Virus record (IMG/VR): IMGVR_UViG_3300023174_000104
Span: 32,689 to 96,688 of that record
Strand: one strand, 5' to 3'
Length of the DNA stretch: 64,000 nucleotides
Source of the DNA: a virus
The notes under the pieces were generated by a model, which was not told the origin of the DNA, made no database searches, and was given only the letters and a program-made list of their open reading frames with translations. Position numbers and translations under genes: made by a program. This document shows positions 36,976-51,654 of the stretch, in pieces. Numbering within the stretch: position 1 is the stretch's first letter; every line of letters begins with the position of its first letter.

Positions 36976-37362
36976 ATGGCTTACAGTAAGGAAGTATTAG
37001 ATCATTACAACAATCCCCGTAATGTGGGTTCATACAAAAAAACTGATGAAGATGTTGGGATAGGACTTGTAGGAGCCCCTGCGTGTGGGGATGTCCTTCA
37101 GTTAAGTATTAAAGTAGATAAACTAACAGGAATAATAACAGATGCAAAATTTAAAACATATGGGTGCGGGTCGGCAATTGCTTCTTCAAGTCTTATCACA
37201 GACTGGGTCAGGGGTAAAACATTGGATGAAGCGTCATCCATTAAAAACTCCCATATTGCCGACGAACTCAGCCTCCCACCAGTCAAAATCCACTGCAGTA
37301 TCCTCGCCGAAGACGCCATCAAAGCCGCAGTAGAAGATTATAGAAAGAAATATAATGGCTAA
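36976..37362 (+). CDS. iscU: Fe-S cluster scaffold IscU
   Basis: MAYSKEVLDHYNNPRNVG, APACGD, GCGSAIASS, LPPVKIHCS. Confidence 0.95.
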   Translation: MAYSKEVLDHYNNPRNVGSYKKTDEDVGIGLVGAPACGDVLQLSIKVDKLTGIITDAKFKTYGCGSAIASSSLITDWVRGKTLDEASSIKNSHIADELSLPPVKIHCSILAEDAIKAAVEDYRKKYNG

Positions 37363-37657
37363 CGAATTAGCAAAATTTTTAAACTCACAACGCAGACACC
37401 GTGATGAATCTGCTGTTAAGAAACAAGTTAAGATTGCTAAATTAAATGGACTTACTCATAAAGATAAAGCAATAAAAGAACCGCATCGTTTAGCTAAACA
37501 TCATGCTATGGATTGCGGCATCCCGAGTTGCCCTCTATGCAGTAACCCACGCAGGACGCATAAAAACACATTAACTGCACAAGAAAAAAGAATGTATCAA
37601 GATACCGAAAAAACTACTGATAAACACAGTAATGGATTAAAACCTAAAGAAGAATAA
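37355..37657 (+). CDS. Hypothetical Cys/His protein
   Basis: KHHAMDCGIPSCPLCSNPR. Confidence 0.5.
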   Translation: MANELAKFLNSQRRHRDESAVKKQVKIAKLNGLTHKDKAIKEPHRLAKHHAMDCGIPSCPLCSNPRRTHKNTLTAQEKRMYQDTEKTTDKHSNGLKPKEE

Positions 37658-37727
37658 TTTACCCTTTTTGTTGTATAAATATTACTGAGTATGTTATACT
37701 CACAGAGACTACACACAAGGAGAAATT

Positions 37728-38267
37728 ATGAAAACAGTCGGTGATAAATTAGAATCGTTTGTTGTTACTGGTGTTAAACCGGGACAACCGGAAGATGCAT
37801 TCTTCCCAATTACAGAAGAAAGCTTTGCAGGTAAATGGAAGATTATCGTTTACTATCCAAAAGACTTTACATTTGTATGCCCAACAGAAATCGTAGCATA
37901 TGACAAATTACGTGTTGACTTTGAAGACCGTGATGCTGTTCTACTAACAGGTAGCACAGACAATGAGTTCTGCAAGTTGGCATGGCAAAAAGCACATCCA
38001 GATTTAGCAAAGATTAGTCATAGTCAATTTGCTGATACAGCCCGTGATGAGCGTAGTTTGATTAATCAATTAGGAGTATTCTATGCTCCAGCTGGTGCGG
38101 CATTACGTGCAACGTTCATTGTTGATCCACAAAATGTTATCCAACATATCACAGTTAATAACTTAGATGTTGGTCGTAGCCCAGAAGAAACATTGCGTGT
38201 TTTAGATGCATTGCAAACTGGTGAACTATGCCCATGTAATCGTGCTATCGGTGGAGACACACTATAA
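37728..38267 (+). CDS. ahpC: Peroxiredoxin AhpC
   Basis: YPKDFTFVCPTEI, GRSPEE, GELCPCN. Confidence 0.95.
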   Translation: MKTVGDKLESFVVTGVKPGQPEDAFFPITEESFAGKWKIIVYYPKDFTFVCPTEIVAYDKLRVDFEDRDAVLLTGSTDNEFCKLAWQKAHPDLAKISHSQFADTARDERSLINQLGVFYAPAGAALRATFIVDPQNVIQHITVNNLDVGRSPEETLRVLDALQTGELCPCNRAIGGDTL

Positions 38268-38812
38268 TGCAACCGCCACCAATCACAATTAATGGTGATT
38301 GGGTGCAATCTGTAAAAGATAGTATCCCAGATCACTCTAAAGATATCAAATTAAACATTGATGCGGTTATCAATCGTTCAGGATTAGATCCAGTTGATAC
38401 ACATGCTATTGCATATGTATCAGCATTAGCCGCAGGAAATGGTGGTTTAGCATTTGAGATTGAACATAACAGTCCATTATTCAGTAATGAACTAGAACGT
38501 GAAGCGGCAAAAACTGCGGCTTCATTGATGGCTCAAAACAATATTTGGTATCCATTTACTGAGATGGCTAATGATGAATCTATGAAGGGTTTACCTGCAG
38601 GATTGCGTATGAATGCCTATGCTACTCATGGTGGTGTATCTAAGAAGAAATTTGAAATGTATTCATTAGCCGCAAGTATTATTGGCAAATGTCATTTCTG
38701 TGTGAAAGCACATTATGATACATTGAAGAAAGAAGGCATGACTACTCAGGAACTTATGGCTATTGGTCGTATTGCTGCCGTAGTTAATGCTATAGGAAAA
38801 GTATCACTCTAA
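38267..38812 (+). CDS. ahpD: Alkyl hydroperoxide reductase AhpD
   Basis: IPDHSKDIKLN, AASLMAQNNIWY, FEMYSLAASIIGKCHFCVKAH. Confidence 0.9.
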   Translation: MQPPPITINGDWVQSVKDSIPDHSKDIKLNIDAVINRSGLDPVDTHAIAYVSALAAGNGGLAFEIEHNSPLFSNELEREAAKTAASLMAQNNIWYPFTEMANDESMKGLPAGLRMNAYATHGGVSKKKFEMYSLAASIIGKCHFCVKAHYDTLKKEGMTTQELMAIGRIAAVVNAIGKVSL

Positions 38813-38934
38813 AATGGGTAAACAAAAGGTTGACTAATATTCAAAATAATGCTATACTTCAGCATGAATTGAAAAAAGGTGTAAAAAACATACGTTGTTT
38901 ACACTAATTGACAACCAGGACTAAATAAAAGACT

Positions 38935-39072
38935 ATGATGAATAAAACTTGTAACATGTTGAAGCATACCGGACAATGGCAGTCAATAGCCACTGTATCC
39001 TTTGCACCAGCATATCCAACAAGTATTCGTGGCTATAATGATTCACAGGAACATGGCCCGGGGACTAGGTAA
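38935..39072 (+). CDS. Putative attenuator leader peptide (45 aa, all 20 amino acids)
   Basis: MMNKTCNMLKHTGQWQSIATVSFAPAYPTSIRGYNDSQEHGPGTR*; 7 nt after TAAATA; 3' end overlaps the antiterminator arm. Confidence 0.6.
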   Translation: MMNKTCNMLKHTGQWQSIATVSFAPAYPTSIRGYNDSQEHGPGTR

Positions 39073-39109
39073 CAAGTTACATCATAACTACATTTATCAA
39101 GACCCTGGG
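39057..39109 (+). promoter_or_regulatory. Putative antiterminator helix
   Basis: CCCGGGG-A-CT-A-GGTAA (39057-39072) pairs with TTATC-A-AG-A-CCCTGGG (39094-39109), sequestering the terminator 5' arm. Confidence 0.6.
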
Positions 39110-39134
39110 AATCGCAAGACTCTCAGGGTTTTTT
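39099..39134 (+). terminator. Intrinsic terminator (attenuator) upstream of the tRNA region
   Basis: GACCCTGGGAATC-GCAA-GACTCTCAGGGTT stem, GNRA loop, U-tract. Confidence 0.85.
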
Positions 39135-39159
39135 GTTTACACAGAGGATTTGACAATAA

Positions 39160-39327
39160 ATGGATGAACAGATAGAATACACAACTTCTAAAGATAAGAC
39201 AGATTGGTTTAGCAATTATGTTTTGACTAAGGAACAAGTAGTACAGTTGATACAAAATAAGATTGACCGTGCTAAAGTCTATCATGAGGCTATTAAGAAA
39301 GTTAACCAACTAACTTATACCGATTGA
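39160..39327 (+). CDS. Small hypothetical protein
   Basis: MDEQIEYTTSKDKTDWFSNYVLTKEQVVQLIQNKIDRAKVYHEAIKKVNQLTYTD*; GAGGA upstream. Confidence 0.45.
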   Translation: MDEQIEYTTSKDKTDWFSNYVLTKEQVVQLIQNKIDRAKVYHEAIKKVNQLTYTD

Positions 39328-39332
39328 TAGAT

Positions 39333-39536
39333 AGCGTGAATAGGCAACGAGAGCCGTAATACAGCGCAAAATGTATAGAATGGGCGGACAGTATACATAA
39401 AATCTATGGTGATAACATAGAAAGTAAGACTACTGGTTAGGGTATCAACCCTATCATGTCGTGTAGCAATACACGGCATTCTAAAACACACTAAGTTGAT
39501 ATGGGCTGAGATGCCGCAAATAGTGTGTTTTAGAAT
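39333..39536 (+). ncRNA. Unidentified structured RNA region
   Basis: Consecutive hairpins (ATGTATA/TATACAT, TCTATG/CATAGA, TAGGG/CCCTA, ATGTCGTGT/ACACGGCAT) and a perfect 16-bp stem at 39478-39536; no ORF. Confidence 0.5.
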
Positions 39537-39577
39537 GCGACCGTAACTCAGATGGATAGAGCACCAGGCTACGAACT
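39537..39577 (+). pseudogene. 5' half of a canonical tRNA-Arg(ACG), truncated
   Basis: GCGACCG TA ACTC AGATGGATA GAGC A CCAGG CTACGAA, then no T arm; followed by an HNH gene. Confidence 0.7.
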
Positions 39578-39610
39578 TACGTTATTTGTTCGCAAATGAT
39601 AAATAAGTGT

Positions 39611-40324
39611 ATGAATTATGAAAATCATTACAATACACTCATTGCCCGAGCAAAAAACAGAATACTGAATCAAGATTATGAAACTCATCATATTGTTCCT
39701 AGATGTATCGGTGGTACTGATGAATTTAGCAATCTCGTCAGATTAACTCCGGAAGAACATTATACCGCCCATTTACTATTAGTAAAAATACATAATCATC
39801 CAAAGTTGATTTATGCCGCCCAAATGATGACGGTTGGTAACAAATATACTCGGCGTAATAACAAAATGTACGGTTGGTTAAAACGCCAATACATTGAATT
39901 ATGTCGTCAACGGACTGGTAAAAATAATGGAAGTTTTGGTAAGAGCTGGTATAATAATCCAGTGACTATGGAAAATGGAAAATTTGCTAATGACGCTATA
40001 CCTGAGGGATGGATTAAAGGTCGTAAAATTAAGAAAGAATTAAAACCAAGAAAAACTACTAAATGTGTAGATTGTAGTAAAGATACCAACTCATATAAAG
40101 CTAACTGGTGTAAAAATTGTAGGCATACAGGACCAGTAAGACAAGAAAAACAAAAAATGTATTTTTCTGATGAAGAAAAGATAAATGCGTTAAAACTGTT
40201 TGATGGTAAAATACGTCCGGCTTTATTTCACTTGGGACTCAATGATAGTGGTACTCATTACAGATACATGAAAAAATTAAAAGCGTCTTTATACCCTCTG
40301 GCTACGAACCAGTTGAAAGGTTAA
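39611..40324 (+). CDS. HNH homing endonuclease
   Basis: ETHHIVPRCIGG...LTPEEHYTAHLLL; GKSWYNN...IPEGWIKGR. Confidence 0.85.
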   Translation: MNYENHYNTLIARAKNRILNQDYETHHIVPRCIGGTDEFSNLVRLTPEEHYTAHLLLVKIHNHPKLIYAAQMMTVGNKYTRRNNKMYGWLKRQYIELCRQRTGKNNGSFGKSWYNNPVTMENGKFANDAIPEGWIKGRKIKKELKPRKTTKCVDCSKDTNSYKANWCKNCRHTGPVRQEKQKMYFSDEEKINALKLFDGKIRPALFHLGLNDSGTHYRYMKKLKASLYPLATNQLKG

Positions 40325-40362
40325 TTGGATACATAGAGGTTCAACTCCTCTAGGACGCACCA
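40283..40362 (+). tRNA. Non-canonical tRNA-Arg(ACG)-like gene lacking a D-arm
   Basis: Acceptor GCGTCTT/AGGACGC+ACCA; anticodon arm CTGG-CTACGAA-CCAG; T arm AGAGG-TTCAACT-CCTCT; only 8 nt between acceptor and anticodon arms. Confidence 0.7.
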
Positions 40363-40498
40363 AAATTTGACAATAATTAAATTGTCTGTTACAATACATT
40401 TTTAACAAAGGAAACGACATGAAGCATAGTAAGCGATAGTGTCATCATAGGCTTCCATAGGTCTATGATTGGCACGTAAAATCAAACATACGACTTAT

Positions 40499-40572
40499 GG
40501 GAGTGAAACTTTAAGGTGAAGTAACCGGCTTTTAACCGGTAAAATTCGGATCGTTCCCGAACACTCCTACCA
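40499..40572 (+). tRNA. tRNA-Lys(TTT)
   Basis: ACCGG-CTTTTAA-CCGGT; atypical T loop ATCGTTC; CCA. Confidence 0.85.
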
Positions 40573-40660
40573 TATAAAAACACATTACCGAGGACCGAAC
40601 TCTTTACTATGGGCTCCGACCATAAAGAGAGGTAGTGTGTTTCTATATGGTATAATAAAA

Positions 40661-40752
40661 GGAAACGTGGCAGAGCCCGGTTTATTGCACCTGACTTGAA
40701 ATCAGACGGATTAGAAATAGTCCCGTGAGTTCGAATCTCACCGTTTCCACCA
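40661..40752 (+). tRNA. tRNA-Ser(TGA)
   Basis: CTGA-CTTGAAA-TCAG, long variable arm, TTCGAAT, CCA. Confidence 0.92.
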
Positions 40753-40754
40753 AT

Positions 40755-40831
40755 GGTGCTTGTCGTCAAGCGGTTAAGACCTCGGATTGTGATTCCGATA
40801 TGCGTGGGTTCAAATCCCATCAAGCACCCCA
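40755..40831 (+). tRNA. tRNA-His(GTG)
   Basis: TCGGA-TTGTGAT-TCCGA; G-1:C73; CCA. Confidence 0.92.
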
Positions 40832-40834
40832 AAC

Positions 40835-40910
40835 GGTTGAATAGCATAGCGGCCAATGCACCACCTTCATACGGTGTTTATCGTCGGTTCGAGTCCGACT
40901 TCAACTACCA
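40835..40910 (+). tRNA. tRNA(CAT), Met or Ile2
   Basis: CACC-TTCATAC-GGTG; TTCGAGT; CCA. Confidence 0.8.
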
Positions 40911-40918
40911 ATCATTAT

Positions 40919-40992
40919 TCCCGGTTAGCTCAAAAGTAGAGCACACGACTGATAATCGTGCGACAGAGGAGCGTTACCTCTACTGGGAACCA
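40919..40992 (+). tRNA. tRNA-Ile(GAT)
   Basis: CACGA-CTGATAA-TCGTG; atypical T loop AGCGTTA; CCA. Confidence 0.85.
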
Positions 40993-41076
40993 AGTTGTGT
41001 TGCAACTAATTTCAGGGAGTGTACGTTAGCCTGAATTAAAATGAAAAAAATCGGCGCCATATTTTAGGAGACTCAC

Positions 41077-41166
41077 ATGAGTTGGAATCAATCATTAGAA
41101 AAACATAAACAAGAAATTGAAGCATGGACACATTTATGTAATGTGTACAAGGAGTCTCTTTATTAA
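41077..41166 (+). CDS. Small ORF (29 aa)
   Basis: RBS AGGAG; MSWNQSLEKHKQEIEAWTHLCNVYKESLY*. Confidence 0.35.
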   Translation: MSWNQSLEKHKQEIEAWTHLCNVYKESLY

Positions 41167-41175
41167 AGATAAAAT

Positions 41176-41250
41176 ACCCTCTTTGCCAAGCGGTAAGGCC
41201 TCGGATTTTGATTCCGACATTCGGTGGTTCGAATCCATCAGGGGGTGCCA
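41176..41250 (+). tRNA. tRNA-Gln(TTG)
   Basis: TCGGA-TTTTGAT-TCCGA; TTCGAAT; CCA. Confidence 0.9.
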
Positions 41251-41254
41251 GTTA

Positions 41255-41403
41255 TGGGATAGACGATAGGTTTGAGTCCCTGTCAATCTAATCACAGTGG
41301 GGTTAACTGTGATGACACTATAGTATGATTGATAGGTGTATAAACTTGCCTATACGAGACAATCTAATGAGGCTTATTAACAATAAGATAGTTAGGCTCC
41401 CGC
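41255..41403 (+). ncRNA. Unidentified structured RNA between tRNAs
   Basis: CCTGTCAATC/GATTGATAGG, ATCACAGT/ACTGTGAT and GTATA/TATAC stems. Confidence 0.4.
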
Positions 41404-41411
41404 CTTTATAA

Positions 41412-41487
41412 ACCAAGATAGCTCATCAGGTAGAGCACTAGTTTGAAGCACTAGGTGTGGTTGGTTCAAGTCCAACTCTTGGTACCA
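41412..41487 (+). tRNA. tRNA-Phe(GAA)
   Basis: CTAGT-TTGAAGC-ACTAG; TTCAAGT; CCA. Confidence 0.85.
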
Positions 41488-41489
41488 AT

Positions 41490-41564
41490 GGGTCCTTAGT
41501 TCAATGGATAGAATACGATGCTTCGAACTTCGGGATGTGGGTTCAATTCCTACAGGACCCTCCA
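41490..41564 (+). tRNA. tRNA-Arg(TCG)
   Basis: Loop CTTCGAA; acceptor GGGTCCT/AGGACCC; CCA. Confidence 0.85.
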
Positions 41565-41612
41565 GTACATGATTAAATACAATTAGTGACTAAAAGCGAA
41601 AAGGAGTAAATT

Positions 41613-42173
41613 ATGGCTGTTCTAGCACTAGATATCAGTGGAGTTCCCCGGCAGTGGATCTCAAATGATGACGCAATTACCTATCAAGCAAAAGATGCCA
41701 TCGCATGGAGTATGGGCAATATTGTGGCTAGATATCGTGGTGGTATACAAAATGACGGTACATTAAGTTACTTAGAAGCTAGTAGCATTATCGCTATCAA
41801 AGGTCATGGATTCAATCCATACAAACATTCATGTGTAGCACTAACTAATAAAACATTGTTTGGTCGTGATAGACATGTATGCGCTTATTGTGGAAATCAT
41901 TTTCCAAACTTTCATGTATTAAGTCGTGATCATATTCATCCAAAAAGTAAAGGTGGTGAAAACACCTGGATGAATGTGGTTACAGCATGTCGTGATTGCA
42001 ATAGTAAAAAAGGTCATAAGACATTGAAAGAAGCAAAGATGGAACTATTATATACTCCATATGTACCAAACCACTACGAAAATATGATATTACAACATAG
42101 AACAATTCTTGCCGATCAAATGGAATATTTGTTAGCAGGAGTTCCAAAACATAGCAGAATTTTATTATCATAG
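41613..42173 (+). CDS. HNH endonuclease (McrA/HNH_5-like)
   Basis: RDRHVCAYCG...SRDHIHPKSKGGENTWMNVVTACRDCNSKKG. Confidence 0.9.
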   Translation: MAVLALDISGVPRQWISNDDAITYQAKDAIAWSMGNIVARYRGGIQNDGTLSYLEASSIIAIKGHGFNPYKHSCVALTNKTLFGRDRHVCAYCGNHFPNFHVLSRDHIHPKSKGGENTWMNVVTACRDCNSKKGHKTLKEAKMELLYTPYVPNHYENMILQHRTILADQMEYLLAGVPKHSRILLS

Positions 42174-42200
42174 TGTATAATACTGTTAAATAAACATATT

Positions 42201-42276
42201 GCCCCCTTAGCTCATCTGGTAGAGCAACTGATTTGTAATCAGTAGGTGGTCTGTTCGAGTCGGACAGGGGGCACCA
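42201..42276 (+). tRNA. tRNA-Thr(TGT)
   Basis: ACTGA-TTTGTAA-TCAGT; CCA. Confidence 0.93.
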
Positions 42277-42283
42277 AAATTAT

Positions 42284-42364
42284 TCCACGGGAGCCGCCGG
42301 GTGTGGCAGCAGACTGTTAATCTGTGCGAAAGCTAGCTAGGTTCGAGTCCTAGCCGTGGAGCCA
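42284..42364 (+). tRNA. tRNA-Asn(GTT)
   Basis: GCAGA-CTGTTAA-TCTGT; extra GC-GAAA-GC variable hairpin; CCA. Confidence 0.85.
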
Positions 42365-42379
42365 AACATAAATAACTAT

Positions 42380-42998
42380 ATGTATGAATGTATAGAGTGT
42401 AATAAATTGTTTGCTAGTATTATGGCCTTAACCGGGCATAAACGAATGCATGGCCAATCTAATGGTAAATCTAAAAAAATAGTATGTTCTTGTTTGATAA
42501 CTCGTAAAGTAATGCCTTATCAAAATTTAGAACAATATCAAAAAACATTAATTGGATGCAAACAATGTAATAAAATATTTCATCCTACTACGGAAAGAAA
42601 AACTTTTTGTAGTCAATCATGTTTGTTCTGCAACATATAATAATAAAATTTACGTAAAAAGACAGAAAAAAGAAAAACCACCAAAAACACCTAGAGCTAA
42701 AAAAATATACTCAGAGGCAGAGATTAGAGCAAGAAATGTATCATCGGTGCAGGCATATAGACAACGAAAATATAGTGCTACCCCAATAGATGTTGACCGT
42801 AAACTAATACAAATCATTTACGAAAATTGTCCTGTAGGCTATGAAGTAGACCATATTATAGCAATTAGTGAAGGTGGTCCGCATCATCAAGACAATCTAC
42901 AATACCTTCCTGCTATAGTAAACAGGAAGAAAAACCGCTATCAAAATTATGATAAAGACTCAGTTTTGCGATGGCAAGATATTATTGTCAAAGGTTGA
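42380..42998 (+). pseudogene. Frameshifted zinc-finger/HNH endonuclease
   Basis: C2H2-like finger in one frame and VDHIIAISEGGPHHQDNLQ HNH in another, joined across a TGTT duplication at 42620-42627. Confidence 0.7.
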
Positions 42999-43044
42999 CA
43001 ATAAATCAAATCTCTGCTACAATAAAGGAAAGTTAGAAATTTAG

Positions 43045-43119
43045 CTGGCGTTAGTATAATGGATAATACAGTAGCCTTCTAAGCTATCAATAGAGGTTCG
43101 ATTCCTCTACGCCGGACCA
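43045..43119 (+). tRNA. tRNA-Arg(TCT)
   Basis: GTAGC-CTTCTAA-GCTAT; TTCGATT; CCA. Confidence 0.9.
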
Positions 43120-43703
43120 TCAAAATTTTCTAGTAGTAATCGCCATTCATCATTACTAAAGTGATAATCTTCTAATACTTCTAACATTCTAGCAAAAACT
43201 ATTAAACCTCTTTTATGGTGAATTAATTCAGTATGTAGTCCTAATATTTTTTTATCAATTACAGACTTTAATACATTCTCACCTTCTTTTTTTAATTTAA
43301 TTTTTTTAGAAATAATGTTCATTTTATTTATTAGATTGTTACATTCTACAATGGCATTATTTGTTAGTTGTTGTAATGCACGAATTTCAATTCGCATTTT
43401 TAATATTAAATCATCAATCTCCGGATTGATATGTTGAACAAATTGTGAAATCATAATAGCTAGTCTAGCCATTACCTCACTATCAAGATTAATATCATCA
43501 TATTGATCGCCGGTACTATCATAGTGTTCACGTTTAATTGGATCACTTAATACTTCATATGCCAATTTCATTCGTTTAAACTTTTCTACATCTCCTCCCT
43601 TATCAGGATGATGTAATTGTGCTAAGATTCTGTATTTTTGTTTGATTTCTTCAGATGTGCAATTTTTTGGTAATTCTAAATCATCATATAGGGAGGTTGT
43701 CAT
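43107..43703 (-). CDS. DnaJ (J-domain) protein
   Basis: LYDDLEL...EEIKQKYRILAQLHHPDKGGD...AYEVLSDPIKREHYD. Confidence 0.9.
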   Translation of the reverse strand: MTTSLYDDLELPKNCTSEEIKQKYRILAQLHHPDKGGDVEKFKRMKLAYEVLSDPIKREHYDSTGDQYDDINLDSEVMARLAIMISQFVQHINPEIDDLILKMRIEIRALQQLTNNAIVECNNLINKMNIISKKIKLKKEGENVLKSVIDKKILGLHTELIHHKRGLIVFARMLEVLEDYHFSNDEWRLLLENFDGPA

Positions 43704-43758
43704 AACAATATTTATCATCATGCATTTTATGTAGTATTAAGTACTACAATGATAAAAT

Positions 43759-43925
43759 TTGACAATAAATCCTCAATCTGCTATACTCTAGTTATAGATT
43801 GATTGAACAAGTTCTTGGGAAACAGAGAAACGAAAGAATTTGACAATAAATGGTAGTTATGATACAATCATAGCATGAGTTGAGAAAAGTCATCGTACTA
43901 CTCAACAAAGTTCTTTAAAATTTAG
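43759..43925 (+). promoter_or_regulatory. Tandem sigma70 promoters plus boxA-like element
   Basis: TTGACA(43759)..TGcTATACT, TTGACA(43840)..TGaTACAAT, then GTTCTTTAAAA at 43910. Confidence 0.65.
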
Positions 43926-43955
43926 AATTCATATAGCCCTGTTTAAGTTACAGGG

Positions 43956-44175
43956 ACTATATGTAAACATATTAAGGGTTACCTGATCCGTTAGGTACTC
44001 TATGGAAGCATAACCAGTTGACGGACTGGCTTCGCATAGAGTACAAGAAGCGTACCGACAATAGCAATATTGTTTAACGTGACGGGCAGTTAGGCAGTAA
44101 TGACGAATGACATTGCATCAGTAGACGGTACTGATTATTTGTTTAATAGTTCCCATAGTGTGTTTTCATATAGTG
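43956..44175 (+). ncRNA. Structured RNA enclosed by a long stem
   Basis: ACTATATGTAAACATATTA pairs with TAGTGTGTTTTCATATAGT; internal hairpins GTACTCTATG/CATAGAGTAC and ATCAGTA/TACTGAT. Confidence 0.55.
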
Positions 44176-44176
44176 T

Positions 44177-44303
44177 GTTATTAGTTTTGCTGATGTAAGC
44201 CATTGAGTAAACGTCAACTCTAAGTAACTATGTATATAAACGGTACGTCCAGCTGGCAATTCCGTTGAGCATAGCAAATAGTGCGTCAGCAAAACTAATA
44301 ACA
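44177..44303 (+). ncRNA. Structured RNA enclosed by a ~22-bp stem
   Basis: TGTTATTAGTTTTGCTGATGTA / TGCGTCAGCAAAACTAATAACA. Confidence 0.5.
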
Positions 44304-44304
44304 T

Positions 44305-44379
44305 GTCGCATTAGACTTCTGGTGAGGTCATCACCCTTTCAAGGTGACTAGACGGGATCGTAACCCGTATGCGACTCCA
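44305..44379 (+). tRNA. tRNA-Glu(TTC)
   Basis: TCACC-CTTTCAA-GGTGA; atypical T loop ATCGTAA; CCA. Confidence 0.87.
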
Positions 44380-44386
44380 ATTTTTT

Positions 44387-44730
44387 GTAGTTAGGTGAGA
44401 GGCGTGGGCAATTGTTGGAGATCAACTAACAGCTACATTTTTAATTTCGCATAGTTTAATACTAGAACAAAATGACACTAGGGTACCTTAGTGTAGATAT
44501 CGGCGGAGTACTGTTCCGATTGCGTCAAGAATCCCGTTACTATTTTCGTTAAAATAGCGTTTGATTAATGATAGAGATCCGGTGGCAGAAAACCGTTAGC
44601 GTGAGGATTAAAAATACCCTTGCAGGCTCTGATAGGCAGAATCTCACTGCACACAGACTTTGAATAAATGAGATGGACAGAGTAACCGCTCAATTAAGGG
44701 CTTGTGTGGAAACAAGTAGCTTATACTAAT
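44387..44730 (+). ncRNA. Large unidentified ncRNA (3' domain shared with 51196-51406)
   Basis: ORF-free, multiple stems; ends GACAGAGTA..CTCA.TT.AGGGCT..TGTGG..AGTAGCT..ACTAAT. Confidence 0.55.
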
Positions 44731-44857
44731 ACATAACATAGATGTATACAACAACCCTAATATTGTACACATCTATGTTATACTAATTTTTGAGTTACAT
44801 CGCCCTGATACTTCTCTCAGTAATGAGACACTAGGTCTTGCAACCGTAACTCATCTT

Positions 44858-44943
44858 GGAGATGTAGGAAAATTGGTAACCCCAGGAGACTGTAAATCTT
44901 CCGCCTTATGGCACTACTGGTTCAACTCCAGTTGTCTCCACCA
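44858..44943 (+). tRNA. tRNA-Tyr(GTA)
   Basis: GGAGA-CTGTAAA-TCTTC, long variable arm, CCA. Confidence 0.9.
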
Positions 44944-44950
44944 AGAATAT

Positions 44951-45027
44951 GCACCGTTAGATCAGTTGGTTAGATCGCATGCCTGTCACGCATGAGGCCA
45001 GGGGTTCAAGTCCCCTACGGTGCGCCA
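44951..45027 (+). tRNA. tRNA-Asp(GTC)
   Basis: CATGC-CTGTCAC-GCATG; CCA. Confidence 0.93.
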
Positions 45028-45075
45028 AAATATTTGACTACAATCATTGTATGATATATAATAGTAACAAGATTT

Positions 45076-45373
45076 GCGACTGTGGTGAAATAGGTAGACA
45101 CAAGAGACTTGAGAGTAAAATTTGAGTGCCTTGAGGGAAATCTCAGGAGTAGAACCCGTCAAATTCGGTGAAGGCTGTAAAATGCTAATACCGAGCCAAG
45201 CTTAGTGAGAAATCACTTTGAAGGTGTAGAGACTAGACGGCGGGCATCTAAGGTAGTAATACTATGATGAAGGTATAGTCCAGACCATCAAACTGTATAG
45301 GTAGTGAAAACTATAGTGGTAAGAAAATCTCTCGCTTAACAGCATCCCGGTTCGATTCCGGGCAGTCGCACCA
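45076..45373 (+). tRNA. tRNA-Leu(TAA) interrupted by a group I intron
   Basis: Exon 1 45076-45110 ends AGAGACTT; exon 2 45324-45373 starts AAAATCTCT; spliced loop CTTAAAA. Confidence 0.9.
45111..45323 (+). mobile_element. Group I self-splicing intron (213 nt, no ORF)
   Basis: Inserted after a U, ends in G; core elements AAATTCGGTGAA, AATACCGAGC, GTAGAGACTAGA, GAAGGTATAGTCC. Confidence 0.9.
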
Positions 45374-45382
45374 AAGAATGAT

Positions 45383-45460
45383 GCCTCTATAGCACAATTG
45401 GTTAGTTGCAAGCGACTCATAATCGCTAGGTTCCTGGTTCGAGTCCAGGTGGAGGCACCA
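45383..45460 (+). tRNA. tRNA(CAT), probably Ile2 (lysidine type)
   Basis: AGCGA-CTCATAA-TCGCT resembles the ileX anticodon arm; CCA. Confidence 0.85.
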
Positions 45461-45465
45461 ATTAA

Positions 45466-45553
45466 GGATAGTTGCCCGAGTGGTTAAGGGAGCGGTTTGC
45501 TAAACCGTCGCTGTGAAAACGGCGCATAGGTTCGAATCCTATACTATCCGCCA
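45466..45553 (+). tRNA. tRNA-Ser(GCT)
   Basis: GCGGT-TTGCTAA-ACCGT, long variable arm, CCA. Confidence 0.92.
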
Positions 45554-45735
45554 GATTTCTTTTTTGTTCGGTCTATGATTTCATGGCGAAACATAGGATT
45601 TTCAATCATCATCCGAGCAAGCATACCAGTTAGATAACCCCGTTCATATAATAATTGTTCGTGGCTATCTTTGTAATTATGGTTGTTTTGACGCAACAAC
45701 TTTTCAACAATATCAATACAGTCTTGGATATCCAT
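45544..45735 (-). CDS. Hypothetical protein
   Basis: 63-aa ORF starting 4 nt after TAAATA. Confidence 0.5.
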   Translation of the reverse strand: MDIQDCIDIVEKLLRQNNHNYKDSHEQLLYERGYLTGMLARMMIENPMFRHEIIDRTKKKSGG

Positions 45736-45754
45736 ACTGTATTTATAAAAGAAC

Positions 45755-46030
45755 GTGCCGGGTGTCGCTGGCTACTCTGACCCAGAGGACGAGAAGTGGC
45801 GTGACAGCTACGGGTGGTTCTGAAACGTAATAGTTTCACACAGAGGACATGGAAACATGTGCGTGTATGTGCGGTCTAACCTAACCGGCGCTAGCAATGC
45901 GATAACGGTCCCTGTCGGGAAGCGGGTGGAAGGTATGTGTGATGCATAGAATCGCTAACCTTAGTTGAGTTAGATTCCGGATTAATCTATGTTGATGTAC
46001 TATAATTACCGCCGGGGGATGCCAGAGCAA
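45755..46030 (+). ncRNA. GC-rich unidentified structured RNA
   Basis: GC well above background; CTGGC at the 5' end pairs with GCCAG at the 3' end; internal hairpins; no credible ORF. Confidence 0.55.
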
Positions 46031-46033
46031 TAT

Positions 46034-46110
46034 GTAGGTGTGTCGCTGAATGGTCAGGCCGCGGATTGCAAATCCGTTTTATGCAGGTTCGATCCCTGTC
46101 ACCTACTCCA
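46034..46110 (+). tRNA. tRNA-Cys(GCA)
   Basis: GCGGA-TTGCAAA-TCCGT; U73; CCA. Confidence 0.9.
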
Positions 46111-46121
46111 AAGATATATTT

Positions 46122-46376
46122 TTATTCGGCAGCAGGCGCCTTAGGCCATTTCTTTAATGGGCATTCCTGATTTGGCATCCAAGTTTTTACCTTCATAAAA
46201 CAGCCGCACATTTTACAAGTGTCAGTAGGTTTGTAAAGTTTTTCACAACTGTGACACGTATTATAACGGTATTCTTGAACTTCTATGCTTACTTTGTTTG
46301 AAAGCATACTTGCAGCCGCATTTTCGGCTGCATCACGAACTTGTTCCATTTTTTCTTTGAGTTTGTTTATAATCAT
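46122..46376 (-). CDS. Small Cys-rich protein
   Basis: RYNTCHSCE...CKMCGCFMKVKTW...CPLKKW. Confidence 0.65.
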   Translation of the reverse strand: MIINKLKEKMEQVRDAAENAAASMLSNKVSIEVQEYRYNTCHSCEKLYKPTDTCKMCGCFMKVKTWMPNQECPLKKWPKAPAAE

Positions 46377-47275
46377 AGTAAAATATATTTATACTTAAAA
46401 AATTTAGCTTCATATTTATTTCTGTACAACAAATCAAAATTTCTATTACTCAATTGACTTTCTAATCTTGAGATTTTATCTTGAGCAGTGGGCTGTCTAG
46501 GAGGATTAGTGTCATAAAGATTTTTCAATTTTTCAAACCCATTAAGTTTAGATTTGATTTCTGTGTATCCAGTAAGTTTATCAAGTTGTCCTATCACAGG
46601 AAATCCATAATATTGAAAAGCCTTTACTTTTTCTCCGTAACTTCCAGGTGTATGAAATTTTTGTAGTTCCGGTAACATCACGTCAAAAGCGTATGCTACT
46701 TCACGTGTTTCTAGAAAAAAGAATGGTACTATGTTTTTATTAGATTTGATGCCGTAGTGATATAGGCTCCAATTGTTTCTATCCGGAATTCCTAGATTCC
46801 CATGATTTTTTTGATACATAATATATTGACCAGCAAATATAACAGTACCGGTCTCAGTCATGTCTGCCATTTTCATAAATGTAGTGACTTGTGGACTACC
46901 GCAATAATATTCATTTGCATAATAATCATGTTCATTTTCTAAAAAAGAAATTACATCTAGATCATGGTAATTAATGGTTAAATCATGTTGTGCTGAGAAT
47001 TCTCTAAGAGTGCATAAATCATGCTCATTTAATGTCTGATTATAAACTGCTGAAAAAGTCTCATAAGGGACTCCTGACTTATGCCATGCATATAACATAG
47101 CCTGACTATCAACCCCACCGCTTAAATATAATGTATATGGTGCTGGATAGTTTTTTGTTATGTATTCTATTGTATGAAACGCAGCCTCAAGAGGAGGTAG
47201 TTTTTTATTATCGTTATCTCTAAATTTAAAATAATAATCATCTCCTACTTTATTAGGATTAGCCCATTTTAGCAT
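46373..47275 (-). CDS. PP-loop (adenine nucleotide alpha-hydrolase) protein
   Basis: LYLSGGVDSQAM motif. Confidence 0.65.
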   Translation of the reverse strand: MLKWANPNKVGDDYYFKFRDNDNKKLPPLEAAFHTIEYITKNYPAPYTLYLSGGVDSQAMLYAWHKSGVPYETFSAVYNQTLNEHDLCTLREFSAQHDLTINYHDLDVISFLENEHDYYANEYYCGSPQVTTFMKMADMTETGTVIFAGQYIMYQKNHGNLGIPDRNNWSLYHYGIKSNKNIVPFFFLETREVAYAFDVMLPELQKFHTPGSYGEKVKAFQYYGFPVIGQLDKLTGYTEIKSKLNGFEKLKNLYDTNPPRQPTAQDKISRLESQLSNRNFDLLYRNKYEAKFFKYKYILL

Positions 47276-47286
47276 ATTTGATCCTA

Positions 47287-48963
47287 TCAAGCACCACAGT
47301 AGCAAGCGTTAGAATCTTTACCCGTGCCATCACTACAACAGTATATATTGCAAAGATTACCACAGACTTGAAAACCACCATTTTGTATACAAGGTTGGGG
47401 TAGACTTTGACAGTTAAATAATAATGTTATATGTAGAAGATCATCTGAAGGCACTGTTTCGGGCTGAAAATTTTGAGGTAATACGTAAATAATAAGTGTT
47501 ATGATTTCTGTTGAATCATCTGTGTTTGTTCTCATAAAACTAGATGTATATATTTTATAAGCCTCTCCTTCTGAAGGGCCCTGTGATTCAACCGGATCCC
47601 CGTATACTCTACCATCTGGTACAATCATAAAGTTTTCTGGTAAAGGAACTATCCATTCTATAGATTTGGTAAATATAGGTTCATATACTCGTAAACGAAT
47701 TTTTTCATTGATATCAGTATTTCCTACTCTAAAAGACATTCTGTGTTCATCTGATGATTGAACTAAGGGATAACTATCTCTATCTGTCATAGTTGCAATC
47801 ATATTAACACTATTTTGATATTTAGGGTCAGTTAAATCTAAAAGATCGGGCTTACTGAAAAGTACAGTGTTAGAACCAATAACCGCTGTGCTAAAAAAAT
47901 CATTTTGAAAAACTTCATGTCGTCTGCCATTTTCATATGAGCGTGACGCTAAGTTACATGCTAAAATTGCACTTCCGGTGGCTGCCGCAATAGATGTTCC
48001 GGCAACATAACCATATGTACCGTTTAGTCCAGCCGCCCATATTTCTTCGCCTGGTGCCCAACCATCTAATTCACCGTGATTAGTTTGTCCACCTGTTACT
48101 GATATTGTACTGCCACCGGTATAGTTGCTAAAGTCGCATGGTTTTAAATCTTTGTTATATGCACCGACAGTTATTACATCTATCATACCTGCAGGAGTTA
48201 CATCTTCTATAGATGTACCATTATTTCCTGCGGCCGCAATGATGAACACACCTTCATCTTCTAACACACGTAGTTTATTTTCTACCCATGCATTTTTTGG
48301 AATAGACCAACTTGCATTTAATACACTATATGTACCGTCAACATGGTCGTTTATGATAGCCTCTAATGCATCTAAGAATTCATGTTCGGTGGTAGCATGA
48401 TTAGGGTCAAATATTTTTACAATTTTTAGTTTTGCTTCAGTAATACCGCAGGTTTTGCCAACAATTACGCTAGCAATCGCAGTACCGTGACCTTTGTTAT
48501 CACTAAAATCACCGGGGGTCACACTATAGATATTTGTAATATTAGCGTCAATAAACTCAGGGTGTGAGGCTTCTATACCACTATCCATGACATACACACT
48601 TATAGATTGACCTAATCTTTTAATAATTGCGGTAGGTGACGTAAACTCCGGTTGATTACGAGAATAGTTTTTCCACCAGTCTTTGGTATCGTTAACATCA
48701 ATATTAATTGATTCTTTATTAGGATCCCTATGTGTTCCAAAATAAGGATTAAGAGGAATTACATCTAGTGGACGTATAGCTAAGTGATTTTCTTCAGTAA
48801 CACGATCAATTATGGCTGATTCTGGAGGCATTTGATCAGCTTCAACTAAAAAGATTTTATCAAAATTATCCCACTCCTTTAAAACTGTGCATCCGTGCTG
48901 TTGTAGGTATGCACTTATATCAGCATCTAATGTATCTGCTTTAAAATCAATTAAAAATTTCAT
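47287..48963 (-). CDS. Subtilisin-like S8 serine protease with Cys-rich tail
   Basis: VMDSGI, GHGTAIAS, AAAGN, GTSIA catalytic motifs; N-terminal prodomain; 8-Cys C-terminus. Confidence 0.9.
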   Translation of the reverse strand: MKFLIDFKADTLDADISAYLQQHGCTVLKEWDNFDKIFLVEADQMPPESAIIDRVTEENHLAIRPLDVIPLNPYFGTHRDPNKESINIDVNDTKDWWKNYSRNQPEFTSPTAIIKRLGQSISVYVMDSGIEASHPEFIDANITNIYSVTPGDFSDNKGHGTAIASVIVGKTCGITEAKLKIVKIFDPNHATTEHEFLDALEAIINDHVDGTYSVLNASWSIPKNAWVENKLRVLEDEGVFIIAAAGNNGTSIEDVTPAGMIDVITVGAYNKDLKPCDFSNYTGGSTISVTGGQTNHGELDGWAPGEEIWAAGLNGTYGYVAGTSIAAATGSAILACNLASRSYENGRRHEVFQNDFFSTAVIGSNTVLFSKPDLLDLTDPKYQNSVNMIATMTDRDSYPLVQSSDEHRMSFRVGNTDINEKIRLRVYEPIFTKSIEWIVPLPENFMIVPDGRVYGDPVESQGPSEGEAYKIYTSSFMRTNTDDSTEIITLIIYVLPQNFQPETVPSDDLLHITLLFNCQSLPQPCIQNGGFQVCGNLCNIYCCSDGTGKDSNACYCGA

Positions 48964-49141
48964 ATTTCGGAACCCCTGTTAGTTATAGCAGTATTTATCT
49001 TTTTTATCATGGTTCATTAAATTTAATGTTTTTGGTCAATACAATACTCAATTATTGTTGACATATTGCTATATTTGCTGTTATACTAAAGACTTCGTAA
49101 AAACCAAGTTTTTACAAAAAACAATTTAAATTAAAATAAAC

Positions 49142-49780
49142 ATGAAACAAATAGATGCATTAGCGGTTCCTTTCTACGAATTCCGGTGTGATGAAAAATT
49201 GATTGATGAAATCCTACCCTTAATTAAAAATCTTGATTACAAAAAGAATACAGATTCTGCTGAACTCTCAACTCAGTATTTTTATCATAAAGAACTGTTT
49301 AAATGGTTTGATGAATGTTTGGAAGAAGTACGGCAACTATATTTTGATTCAACTTTAAAAATGGTAATTACTACCTGCTGGTCAACTAAAACTATGCCTT
49401 TTAAAAGGCATATAACTCATAATCATCAACAAACGCTAATAGGTGGTATTTTATACCTTGATGACTTTCAAAGCGGAGAGACTGTTTTTACTACACCTAA
49501 TCCATGGTTGAGATATCAAAATGAACATATTATGAATGTTTCTACCCAACAGTTGAGTCAATCAAAACTTACAACAAAGATTGTACCTGAGAAAGGTAAA
49601 CTTGTTTTATATCCTCCACATATATTTCATGGTACTATGCCAAACAAAGATAAAAAAATAAGACATACATTGGCATTTGATGCATTCTTTTCTGGTAAAA
49701 TTTATGAAAATTCTAATTGGCCGTATGTTGAAATAAATTCTAGTAGCCTGCAAGAAATAGTTGAAAATAAAGATTCTTAA
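49142..49780 (+). CDS. 2OG-Fe(II) oxygenase-like protein
   Basis: HITHNH...GILYL...PEKGKLVLYPPHIFHGT...RHTLAFD. Confidence 0.8.
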   Translation: MKQIDALAVPFYEFRCDEKLIDEILPLIKNLDYKKNTDSAELSTQYFYHKELFKWFDECLEEVRQLYFDSTLKMVITTCWSTKTMPFKRHITHNHQQTLIGGILYLDDFQSGETVFTTPNPWLRYQNEHIMNVSTQQLSQSKLTTKIVPEKGKLVLYPPHIFHGTMPNKDKKIRHTLAFDAFFSGKIYENSNWPYVEINSSSLQEIVENKDS

Positions 49781-49798
49781 TTAAGCTTCACCAAATTA

Positions 49799-49963
49799 TT
49801 ATAGTGATTGAATGAACTGTTTTGCAGGTTCAACACTACTGAAAAACTTCATTGTCATTGTGAAGTTTACAAGATCATGTACCATAATATAAAAGGATTC
49901 GTCTTCCATCATTGAAAGATGGATATGTAATCCGGTTTTTGTAACAGTATCGTATATGTACAT
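49799..49963 (-). CDS. Small hypothetical protein (54 aa)
   Basis: MYIYDTVTKTGLHIHLSMMEDESFYIMVHDLVNFTMTMKFFSSVEPAKQFIQSL*; 5 nt after TAAATA. Confidence 0.5.
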   Translation of the reverse strand: MYIYDTVTKTGLHIHLSMMEDESFYIMVHDLVNFTMTMKFFSSVEPAKQFIQSL

Positions 49964-49975
49964 AAATATATTTAT

Positions 49976-50050
49976 GCGGGATTAACTCAGGGGTAGAGTG
50001 TCAGCCTTCCAAGCTGTTCGTCAGCGGTTCGAATCCGCTATCCCGCTCCA
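49976..50050 (+). tRNA. tRNA-Gly(TCC)
   Basis: CAGC-CTTCCAA-GCTG; CCA. Confidence 0.93.
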
Positions 50051-50052
50051 AC

Positions 50053-50682
50053 TTATTTTAAAATGATTCTATCACTATATATGAATCTATCATTAAACAT
50101 AGAAGCACAAATATGTTTATATTCCTCATAATTTGAAATTATGTCTTTATACTCAATATTGGATGCTTGTATCCCCTGCAGGCTTACATTAAAGTAATCA
50201 AGTAAATTTTCATACCAATAGTATTGATAAGGTATATTATTCTGCTCTAAATAGATTTGTATTTTGCAAAAGTTAGATATATCATTTATGATAGATTCTA
50301 CAGTTGACATACTAAGTTCATATTGTAATTTTTTTATTTTATCAAATGCGTTGTTATTTCTATTATGCCATATCCCACTGCTTATACTAACTTGTAAACT
50401 ACAGCATTGGTCTAAATAGTTTTTACGATTGATTAAATAGATTTTATCAAATGATTCAAGCCTAAGTTTTGAAATATCTTCTTCTAATTTAATATTGTGA
50501 CCTAATATTTTCAAAATAAATTGCTCACTTCTATGAATTAAATTAGTATTAAATTCTATAGAATTTGTACTATTGTATGTATAAAATTCATATAAGCATT
50601 TTAATTTAGGATATTGCCTACGTATAATTTCAACTAATAGAGTTGATCTGGTTCTAGCAGATCCTATCACAAGAATTTTCAT
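50053..50682 (-). CDS. Sulfotransferase-like (Stf0/P-loop) protein
   Basis: KILVIGSARTRSTLL PAPS-loop-like motif; LINRKNYLDQCCSL; YWYENL. Confidence 0.7.
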   Translation of the reverse strand: MKILVIGSARTRSTLLVEIIRRQYPKLKCLYEFYTYNSTNSIEFNTNLIHRSEQFILKILGHNIKLEEDISKLRLESFDKIYLINRKNYLDQCCSLQVSISSGIWHNRNNNAFDKIKKLQYELSMSTVESIINDISNFCKIQIYLEQNNIPYQYYWYENLLDYFNVSLQGIQASNIEYKDIISNYEEYKHICASMFNDRFIYSDRIILK

Positions 50683-50957
50683 ATTGATCCAAGTCTACTT
50701 AAAATGTTCATTGCTCTGGTTCTTAATCTTTCAGTAAATTCTGATTCAGTTAATACACCTTTAGCAAGATTACATTTTCTACAAGTTACTTGAAGATTGT
50801 TGTATGTAGTTTGTCCGCCCTTACTTTCAGGAATAACATGATCCATGTGTATTTCTTTATCGGACAAGTCTTCATCACAATATACACAATGCAAACCATC
50901 TCTATCCATAACTCTACGGCGTAGGTTAAGAGGAATGTGTTGTTTCTTTTGTAACAT
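50679..50957 (-). CDS. Small HNH endonuclease
   Basis: RDGLHCVYC...MDHVIPESKGGQTTYNNLQVTCRKCNLAKG. Confidence 0.9.
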   Translation of the reverse strand: MLQKKQHIPLNLRRRVMDRDGLHCVYCDEDLSDKEIHMDHVIPESKGGQTTYNNLQVTCRKCNLAKGVLTESEFTERLRTRAMNILSRLGSI

Positions 50958-51029
50958 AAGTTTATTTAGTTACCCAAATATAGTAGACAGATAAATAGTT
51001 TTCTGTTAAACTATAGTTTGTTCTTTAAA

Positions 51030-51114
51030 GCGGACGTGGCGTAATTGGCAGCCGCACCAGATTTAGGTTCTGGCGTCGTAAGATGTGTGAGTTCGAGTCT
51101 CACCGTCCGCACCA
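51030..51114 (+). tRNA. tRNA-Leu(TAG)
   Basis: CCAGA-TTTAGGT-TCTGG, variable arm, CCA. Confidence 0.92.
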
Positions 51115-51119
51115 AATTG

Positions 51120-51193
51120 GGGGGATTGATGTAATGGGAGCCTGGGACCTTTGCAAGGTCTTCGTAACAGTTCGATTCTGTTATCCTCCACCA
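51120..51193 (+). tRNA. tRNA-Ala(TGC)
   Basis: GGACC-TTTGCAA-GGTCT; G3:U70; CCA. Confidence 0.88.
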
Positions 51194-51195
51194 AG

Positions 51196-51406
51196 AAACC
51201 CGTTTACACTTTTACGTTATAAAGTGGGTGGGGCAGTCACCAAAGAAAGTGCTAGGTATGTAGTGCATTGACCATCCGTACTCTGTGGTGGAGTGGCGGG
51301 AACGCATTAGGTGAGGAACGCTAACCTTTTCCAAAAGTAAAAATACGTAGACAGAGTAGTTCCACTCAGTTTAGGGCTCATGTGGTGTGAGTAGCTAGAC
51401 ACTAAT
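51196..51406 (+). ncRNA. Unidentified ncRNA (3' domain shared with 44387-44730)
   Basis: TACTCTGT/ACAGAGTA long-range pairing; shared 3' motif. Confidence 0.55.
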
Positions 51407-51409
51407 TAC

Positions 51410-51484
51410 CGCGGGGTGGAGAAGTAGTAACTCATCAGGCTCATAACCTGAAGATCGGCGGTGCGAATCCGTCCCCCGCATCCA
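51410..51484 (+). tRNA. Initiator tRNA-fMet(CAT)
   Basis: CGCGGGG start with C1:A72 mismatch; TCAGG-CTCATAA-CCTGA; CCA. Confidence 0.88.
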
Positions 51485-51498
51485 AATAGGAATATTAT

Positions 51499-51648: not shown

Positions 51649-51654
51649 TTTTAC

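Follow-up and report, generated by a model that had tools for sequence, protein, structure and literature searches.

The window analysed here is a stretch of 64,000 nucleotides (nt), positions 32,689 to 96,688 of the viral record IMGVR_UViG_3300023174_000104, and all coordinates below count from its first letter unless a related contig is named. The element under study is a leader open reading frame (ORF) which, together with its own promoter and intrinsic terminator, lies at the head of a transfer RNA (tRNA) array on the + strand. The original prediction, made from the DNA letters without database searches, was that this ORF belongs to a translational attenuator that senses all 20 amino acids and controls the array. 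The core of that proposal, an attenuator with a competing antiterminator at the array head, is supported by conservation, covariation, linkage, the selected completeness of the peptide and the position of its codons. The source is an uncultured freshwater giant phage, represented in IMG/VR by a viral contig of 96.7 kilobases (kb) that CheckV rates as 28% complete, so that the genome should be about 350 kb. Matching sequence turns up in runs from aquatic metagenomes, among them lake, drinking-water and estuary samples. In cultured phages, neither blastn nor tblastn gave a match for the region, the leader or a neighbouring protein of 508 amino acids; the sole cultured-phage match is a tail-fibre domain, for which the best, in a Limnohabitans phage, has 56% identity over 11% of the protein. 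The features of the leader are as follows.

38830–38858, + strand: promoter P1, TTGACT-17-TATACT with a TG in the spacer, sigma70-type; transcript start predicted at about 38865
38878–38905, + strand: 5' hairpin right after the predicted transcript start (predicted fold)
38916–38929, + strand: near-invariant motif CAGGACTAAATAAA in the 5' untranslated region (5'UTR), with AGGA 13–14 nt before the ATG (from conservation)
38935–39072, + strand: leader ORF of 45 codons with all 20 amino acids, stop codon TAA (from coding signature and completeness statistics)
39022–39034, + strand: region 1, codons Ser-Ile-Arg-Gly-Tyr, which pairs with region 2; candidate pause hairpin or anti-antiterminator
39055–39072, + strand: region 2, 5' arm of the putative antiterminator, made up of the last codons Gly-Pro-Gly-Thr-Arg and the stop (from folding and covariation)
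39073–39093, + strand: spacer, folding into the antiterminator's apical hairpin or pairing with codons 1–7 (38934–38955)
39094–39110, + strand: region 3, a TTATC toehold and the terminator 5' arm (CCCTGGGA), which pairs with region 2 or region 4
39100–39134, + strand: intrinsic terminator with a stem of about 12 base pairs, a GCAA loop and T6; the hairpin is 39100–39131 and T6 ends at 39134

Homologues were collected through a neighbouring gene and through the leader itself. Genes for NifU-like, AhpC/peroxiredoxin-like and AhpD/CMD-like proteins lie upstream of the leader (36976–38812), and a search with the AhpD protein showed that an ahpD homologue is kept in 72 related viral contigs. In about 21 of these 72 ahpD loci the segment 38862–39142 is retained at about 70% DNA identity, which is exactly the extent from promoter to terminator. 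A wider set was defined by the DNA pattern CAGGAMTAAATAAA-N(1-4)-ACTATGA, taken from the conserved 5'UTR and start, and this recovered at least 119 further related viral stretches, including contigs with ahpD elsewhere. Among 185,579 bacterial species genomes the pattern matched once, by chance, with a stop after six codons.

The 5' end of the element recurs in these relatives. Of 69 distinct homologous loci, 54 have a strict form of P1 (TTGACW-17-TAnnnT) at 57–107 nt upstream of the ATG, and homologues carry hairpins of different sequence at the place of the 5' hairpin, where the alignment is poor and 53% paired. The motif CAGGACTAAATAAA is more strongly conserved than the leader peptide and was found in 13 of the 17 loci that were retrieved independently via ahpD; as it is alike in sequence to region 2 (CCGGGGACTAGGTAA), it could also pair with region 3. 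The TAAATA at 38922–38927 and the ATG at 38935, starting 7 nt on, are where they had been placed. TAAATA was considered as a promoter −10 box and rejected: no conserved −35 box stands at a suitable distance from it, and it belongs to the 5'UTR motif, which is transcribed.

The leader ORF (38935–39072) has, as originally described, 45 codons, 20 amino acids and 33 distinct codons. Its frame is open in all 118 loci, at 40–58 codons, with no premature stop in any homologue. ORF lengths are all multiples of three, alignment gaps are whole codons and the stop codon is TAA in 70 of 76 leader ORFs. In comparisons of related pairs, the synonymous share of single-base codon differences is 45% in this frame and 19–20% in the other two. 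This evolutionary evidence argues that the leader ORF is translated.

What distinguishes the peptide is its composition. All 20 amino acids are present in 72 of the 80 distinct peptides (40–58 amino acids), the other eight having 19, and the most divergent forms are still complete, down to 40 residues. Completeness of this kind is found in 1.0% of 45-amino-acid windows from the long ORFs of this phage, in 1.8% of other ORFs of 40–58 amino acids in related loci and in 1.7% of random peptides of the family's own composition (8.7% with uniform composition). When residues were shuffled within alignment columns, 6.4 ± 2.1 of the 36 representatives stayed complete (at most 14, over 5000 shuffles) as against 32 observed, so positional conservation does not account for completeness; for 15 deeper clusters the corresponding numbers are 1.9 and 12. 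For Cys, Trp, His, Phe, Tyr, Asp and Lys the columns differ between clades and the residues are retained. An internal Met occurs in all 80 distinct peptides; Cys, Trp and His each occur exactly once in about 90% of them, and no peptide is without Trp or His. Conservation is low at most positions (mean column identity 45%), the conserved ones being Trp, Thr-Ser-Ile-Arg-Gly and Gly. Classical regulatory codon runs are absent from the leader: every amino acid is present, the rare ones exactly once. On this statistical evidence, the presence of all 20 amino acids is itself under selection.

The variety of codons is a different matter. It had been put forward as a further sign of a general sensor, and for the window this did not hold, as 33 distinct codons compare with 31.1 ± 2.0 expected by chance (P = 0.23, z = 0.96). 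In relatives, where high codon diversity was also anticipated, 14 clade representatives show no more than a trend, with a mean z of +1.8 that is confounded by GC-rich helix codons. A comparison of the conservation of singleton and multi-copy residues (Mantel–Haenszel odds ratio 3.2) was confounded by positional conservation and was not used. The amino acid missing from a leader showed no correlation with the tRNA missing from its array, arrays being incomplete in most loci. The leader peptide has no Pfam or PHROGs family beyond weak PHROGs hits of unknown function.

The proposed pairing between 39057–39072 and 39094–39109 was recovered at 14 of 16 positions (12 Watson–Crick pairs and two G–U pairs), and the strong terminator said to follow the ORF is present as a hairpin and T6, at −19.1 kcal/mol when 39094–39134 is folded. 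In a flexible scan it is the strongest + strand terminator from 38.8 to 47 kb; a simple terminator scan overlooked the hairpin solely because its loop is longer than 8 nt. Across homologues, 88–89% of terminator cells are paired, with compensatory changes. For the antiterminator, the stretch of RNA that begins at the ATG and ends with the terminator 5' arm was folded for 83 distinct sequences, and the minimum-energy fold pairs the terminator 5' arm with the 3' part of the ORF in 83 of 83. The paired segment consists of the last 4–5 codons and the stop in clades with 40–48 codons; in those with 52–58 codons it lies 25–36 nt before the end of the stop and uses another arm pair, CCGGGGAGTTTCATA with TATGAAACCCCTGG, and the arm pair has been replaced as a whole in the long-ORF clade (GTTTCATA with TATGAAAC). 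The arm thus overlaps the stop codon in the short clade; in the long clade it is placed 22 nt ahead of that codon. In an alignment of 61 sequences, 80% of antiterminator cells are paired, compared with 35–60% when the register is slid by 1–2 columns. Double-change cells, which include C–G/U–A and G–C/A–U exchanges, number 42 as against 17 in shuffles, a value reached in 0 of 500 shuffles. The addition of region 3 brings a mean gain of −15.2 kcal/mol, compared with −3.8 when the end of the ORF is shuffled (mean z −4.9, n = 83). The conserved ORF with covariation in both helices that was looked for in relatives is there: ORF, antiterminator and terminator are all kept, with covariation.

Folding of both conformers, which had also been suggested, gave energies in the window of −12.4 kcal/mol for the helix of regions 1 and 2 (1:2), −19.5 for 2:3 and −19.1 for 3:4. 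As long as region 4 has not been transcribed, 2:3 is the preferred fold, about 7 kcal/mol beyond 1:2, and has a free toehold (GGTAA with TTATC); at full length, 1:2 together with 3:4 is best. In the homologue alignment (A4), 80.5% of cells of the 1:2 helix are paired, with five pairs changed on both sides, and the helices between codons 1–7 and the spacer are 73–84% paired. The whole leader folds at −70.1 kcal/mol (z = −3.6 versus shuffles), and across 34 diverse homologues 74.9% of the cells of the leader helices are paired, versus 36–45% in slid controls. Regions 1–4 and the start:spacer helices therefore make up a classical four-region layout with an extra long-range helix.

The location of the presumed sensing codons fits this layout. 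It was counted in the 75 complete ORFs, among the 83 distinct sequences, in which the antiterminator arm was located, and in 74 of these all 20 amino acids are encoded by codons that start at least 5 nt upstream of the arm. This upstream zone is complete in all 14 clade representatives, compared with 4.9 expected when residue order is shuffled, and the product of the individual probabilities for the 14 is 3e-7. The last codon needed for completeness usually lies 8–10 nt before the arm. From the ribosome footprint and the mRNA helicase site, about 8–10 nt is also roughly the distance from the A site to the leading edge of the ribosome. In the long clades, 11–13 codons at or after the arm contribute nothing to completeness. 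On the proposed model the informative codons would have to sit upstream of region 2, so that a stalled ribosome leaves region 2 free.

The element is tied to tRNA arrays. Of the loci with the element, at least 119 in number, all that have about 1.3 kb or more of downstream DNA show a + strand tRNA array 260–1262 nt after the ORF stop, and there are no tRNAs upstream of the element, one locus excepted. Among ahpD loci, the array is found just downstream wherever the element is present and the flank is sufficient, whereas ahpD loci lacking the element are not flanked by tRNAs; where ahpD is away from the array, the element adjoins the array instead. Because it is always at the array start, even beside differing upstream genes, the element is a marker of the array's 5' end and shifts position along with it. 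Two more divergent leaders, one of 34 codons with 19 amino acids (L067, 5387–5491) and one of 39 codons with 18 amino acids (L073, 5434–5553), also lie upstream of tRNA arrays; both have an A-rich motif upstream and a terminator and a TTGACT box downstream, and a lipoprotein-like ORF precedes both. The following features lie beyond the terminator in the window.

39150–39178, + strand: promoter P2, TTGACA-17-TAGAAT, near-consensus sigma70-type, directly after the terminator
39160–39327, + strand: conserved ORF of 55 amino acids, with its ATG inside the P2 spacer
39340–39536, + strand: conserved, structured non-coding stretch, rich in hairpins (from the alignment upstream of the first tRNA)
39527–53780, + strand: tRNA array, a split tRNA-Arg(ACG) followed by 24 tRNAs (ARAGORN); presumed target of read-through

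P2 (TTGACA-17-TAnnAT) is found 10–46 nt past the terminator in 48 of 69 distinct lineages. The small ORF is present in 32 lineages, at 45–55 amino acids apart from one form of 87, and in 32 of the 32 lineages with both features its ATG falls within the P2 spacer, precisely 10 nt downstream of the first −35 base. As transcripts from P2 are without its start codon, the small ORF should be expressible only by read-through from P1, a point made apart from the original prediction and confirmed by the position of the ATG. The ORF of 55 amino acids has no family in Pfam or PHROGs beyond weak PHROGs hits of unknown function, and nothing was found for it in the ESM Atlas. The structured stretch is shared by many lineages, some of which have it immediately behind the leader terminator; it contains the recurring blocks GGCAACGAG, GGGCGGAC, GATAAC and GTAAGACT, and its long closing stem abuts the tRNA. 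Rfam has no family for this stretch or for the leader at the gathering or E-value threshold. In lineages without P2 and the small ORF, the leader stands directly before the structured RNA and the tRNAs, often with a weaker U tract; L074, L079, L101 and L168 are of this kind, with gaps of 200–280 nt.

Within the array, ARAGORN places 24 tRNAs at 40499–53780, covering all 20 amino acids, and the split tRNA-Arg(ACG) starts at about 39527. This tRNA (39527–40362) is interrupted after the anticodon by an HNH homing-endonuclease gene (39596–40324, PHROG 655) and is intact in the close relative L002 (5280–5356). An Rfam group I intron match of 57.5 bits, above the gathering score, lies in the spacer between tRNA-Asp and tRNA-Met, outside called genes (45101–45300). 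In a related phage contig, L014, ARAGORN calls a permuted gene resembling transfer-messenger RNA, with a tag ending in LAA, upstream of ahpD (1800–2245). Immediately ahead of tRNA-Lys, at 40367–40395, is a near-consensus promoter of the extended −10 type (TTGACA-17-TACAAT with TG), from which it follows that the array has several internal promoters; the caveat that downstream sigma70 promoters also feed the array was well founded, given the conserved P2 and the further promoters before tRNA-Lys. No strong + strand intrinsic terminator was found from 39135 to about 45.5 kb in the window scan, so read-through could reach 17 tRNA genes.

We propose that the leader is a ribosome-mediated transcription attenuator heading the phage tRNA array, with a leader peptide that gauges overall decoding capacity, and the comparative evidence makes this the likely reading. 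Host RNA polymerase would start at P1 and transcribe the ORF of 45 codons that holds every amino acid. The pairing of region 2 with region 3 would act as the antiterminator and be the most stable fold until the 3' arm of the terminator exists. A ribosome that keeps pace with the polymerase would reach the end of the ORF and occupy region 2 (in the long-ORF clades it would sit between regions 2 and 3), in which case 3:4 would pair and transcription would stop at 39134. A ribosome delayed upstream of region 2, because any one charged tRNA is short or because translation is stressed, would let the antiterminator persist, and the predicted default with a slow or absent ribosome is antitermination. 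Read-through would then continue into the ORF of 55 amino acids, the structured RNA and the tRNA genes. With all 20 residues encoded ahead of region 2, read-through would rise whenever any charged tRNA ran short, and slow decoding of any codon would probably lead to transcription into the tRNA region. That termination responds to translation, that it responds in this direction and that tRNA output changes as a result are all three things that we infer.

Several observations weigh against this scheme. The AGGA stands 13–14 nt from the ATG, whereas the Shine–Dalgarno sequences of other genes in the window are at 6–10 nt, and in some lineages only 2–4 U follow the terminator hairpin. The conservation of Ser-Ile-Arg-Gly at the amino-acid level hints at a role for the peptide itself. 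The leader of L167 is without Asp and that of L168 without Cys, although their arrays have tRNA-Asp and tRNA-Cys respectively. Since the full-length RNA is most stable with the conserved 1:2 helix and 3:4 both formed, a ribosome stalled early might still permit termination, as in an untranslated trp leader, and not every codon might then be sensed. With P2 and the promoters before tRNA-Lys, read-through is not the sole source of array transcripts; as P2 follows the terminator, the switch can only add to transcription of the array, and its sole exclusive output is the small ORF (48–55 amino acids). Four RNA sequencing runs with related sequence speak neither for nor against the scheme. In one (X18) a contig of 174 nt ends at 39133, within the U tract, and in another (X17) a contig spans ahpD into the leader; assembled contigs show neither ends nor levels, and DNA carry-over is possible.

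One alternative explanation is that only codons near region 1 (about 26–39) are sensed, as in the trp leader, with early stalls or a lack of translation resulting in termination and the 1:2 hairpin synchronizing polymerase and ribosome. The conserved 1:2 helix (80.5% paired) would suit such an arrangement, as would the energies of the full-length RNA, in which 1:2 with 3:4 has a minimum of −34.1 kcal/mol compared with −25.5 for the forced antiterminator. Before region 4 is present, however, 2:3 beats 1:2 (−19.5 versus −12.4 kcal/mol) and has a free toehold. In addition Cys (codon 6), His (codon 11) and Trp (codon 15) occur only in the N-terminal part, each once in about 90% of peptides, and where lost they reappear elsewhere; upkeep of these residues would be pointless if their codons were not sensed, and we therefore regard sensing restricted to region 1 as decidedly improbable. 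It is highly improbable, in our view, that the leader is nothing more than a gene for a small protein, equipped with a promoter and terminator of its own, in which the pairing only shapes the 3' end of the mRNA. Purifying selection on the frame and the conserved Trp, Thr-Ser-Ile-Arg-Gly and Gly positions are what such a gene would show, but column identity is low (45%) and yet the set of 20 is kept through relocation of residues, upstream of the arm. The helices covary and the arm pair was swapped as a whole in the long clade, the peptide has no Pfam or PHROGs family, and a protein-coding role gives no reason for exactly one Cys, Trp and His, placed anywhere.

A further explanation accepts the attenuator and changes its purpose: it would serve the small protein (39160–39327), or the released leader RNA would act in trans, with the tRNAs made mainly from P2 and later promoters and the location at the array head reflecting inherited gene order. 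In 32 lineages the small ORF would be expressible only by P1 read-through, and P2 is near-consensus; as to action in trans, two reports on Sinorhizobium describe attenuator RNAs and leader peptides that act in this way (PMC6614838, PMC7298713). Nevertheless, L074, L079, L101 and L168 retain the leader although P2 and the small ORF are missing, the element invariably opens the array despite differing upstream genes, and between it and the first 17 tRNAs there is no strong terminator, so that we think it improbable that the tRNAs are a side issue. Another possibility, compatible with an attenuator that reads decoding capacity, is that it works as a counter-defence sensor: cleavage by an anticodon nuclease, or host tRNA decay induced by the phage, would stall the ribosome and bring on the phage tRNAs and, with them, a small effector protein. 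The need for the full set of amino acids would in this case arise because the phage cannot predict which tRNA is attacked. We hold this more specific role to be doubtful, and the connection with anticodon nucleases drawn in the original prediction to be speculative.

An attenuator gauging decoding capacity at the head of a tRNA array can be set beside several known systems. The enterobacterial leaders trpL, hisL, leuL and pheL, and the multivalent leaders of thrL and ilvGMEDA, have 14–32 codons with runs of cognate codons in region 1. The phage element resembles them in its four-region layout (1:2/2:3/3:4), in a stop in or next to region 2, in the intrinsic terminator and in the presumed coupling of ribosome and polymerase. 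It differs in that their runs represent one to three cognate amino acids, whereas the phage leader has 40–58 codons and no runs, and in that they control biosynthetic enzymes while the phage element heads tRNAs. The Escherichia coli pyrBI leader ORF, of 44 codons, also has no regulatory codon runs, and there the distance between ribosome and polymerase decides termination. In pyrBI, however, a closely following ribosome prevents the terminator from forming, which is the opposite sign, and the signal is polymerase pausing that depends on uridine triphosphate and not tRNA supply.

The original prediction contrasted the leader with classical attenuators that sense one or a few amino acids, an account that omits the upstream ORF (uORF) of whiB7 (wblC), already a broad sensor of amino acids and translation stress and, in mechanism, the closest known system. 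In mycobacteria and other actinobacteria, efficient translation of this uORF leads to termination and stalling to read-through; the residues it contains decide which amino-acid starvations are sensed, and the uORF of Mycobacterium smegmatis has 19 of the 20 (PMC10274678). A longish uORF of mixed composition before a Rho-independent terminator and a competing antiterminator is an anatomy that the phage leader fits, its response to stalling being predicted. There is no sequence relation between the two, and the whiB7 uORF is Ala-rich, species-variable and often without several amino acids, whereas Ala makes up 6% of residues in the phage family and only the phage leader has its completeness conserved by selection. 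The output of whiB7 is the transcription factor of a bacterial stress regulon, whereas that of the phage element would be a tRNA array, a small protein and a structured RNA. The resemblance is one of mechanism, not of family membership.

For the proposed physiology, a likeness is found in the trn operon of Anabaena sp. PCC 7120, a long plasmid-borne tRNA array that is induced by translational stress and controlled at its promoter by the repressor TrcR, which binds direct repeats (PMC8421152, PMC10272220). It too is an accessory, horizontally mobile tRNA array that comes on when translation is impaired, as we propose for the phage; it differs in being bacterial and plasmid-borne and in its control at the promoter. 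The words 'leader', 'attenuat...' and 'terminator' are absent from the main text of the 2021 paper on the Anabaena trn operon, and full-text literature searches turned up no account of tRNA genes preceded by a leader-peptide attenuator. To our knowledge, next to nothing has been described about how large phage tRNA arrays are regulated. If the proposal is correct, these phages would carry an RNA device, complete in itself within about 270 nt, that reads decoding capacity for 20 amino acids simultaneously and feeds back on tRNA supply, and the conserved small protein and structured RNA may be further parts of the same phage response. The evolutionary evidence for 'one of each amino acid' as a selected property of a peptide is unusually clear. 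It would make the sensing role of leader ORFs of mixed composition, such as that of whiB7, directly testable and suggests a compact synthetic reporter for general translation stress or tRNA damage.

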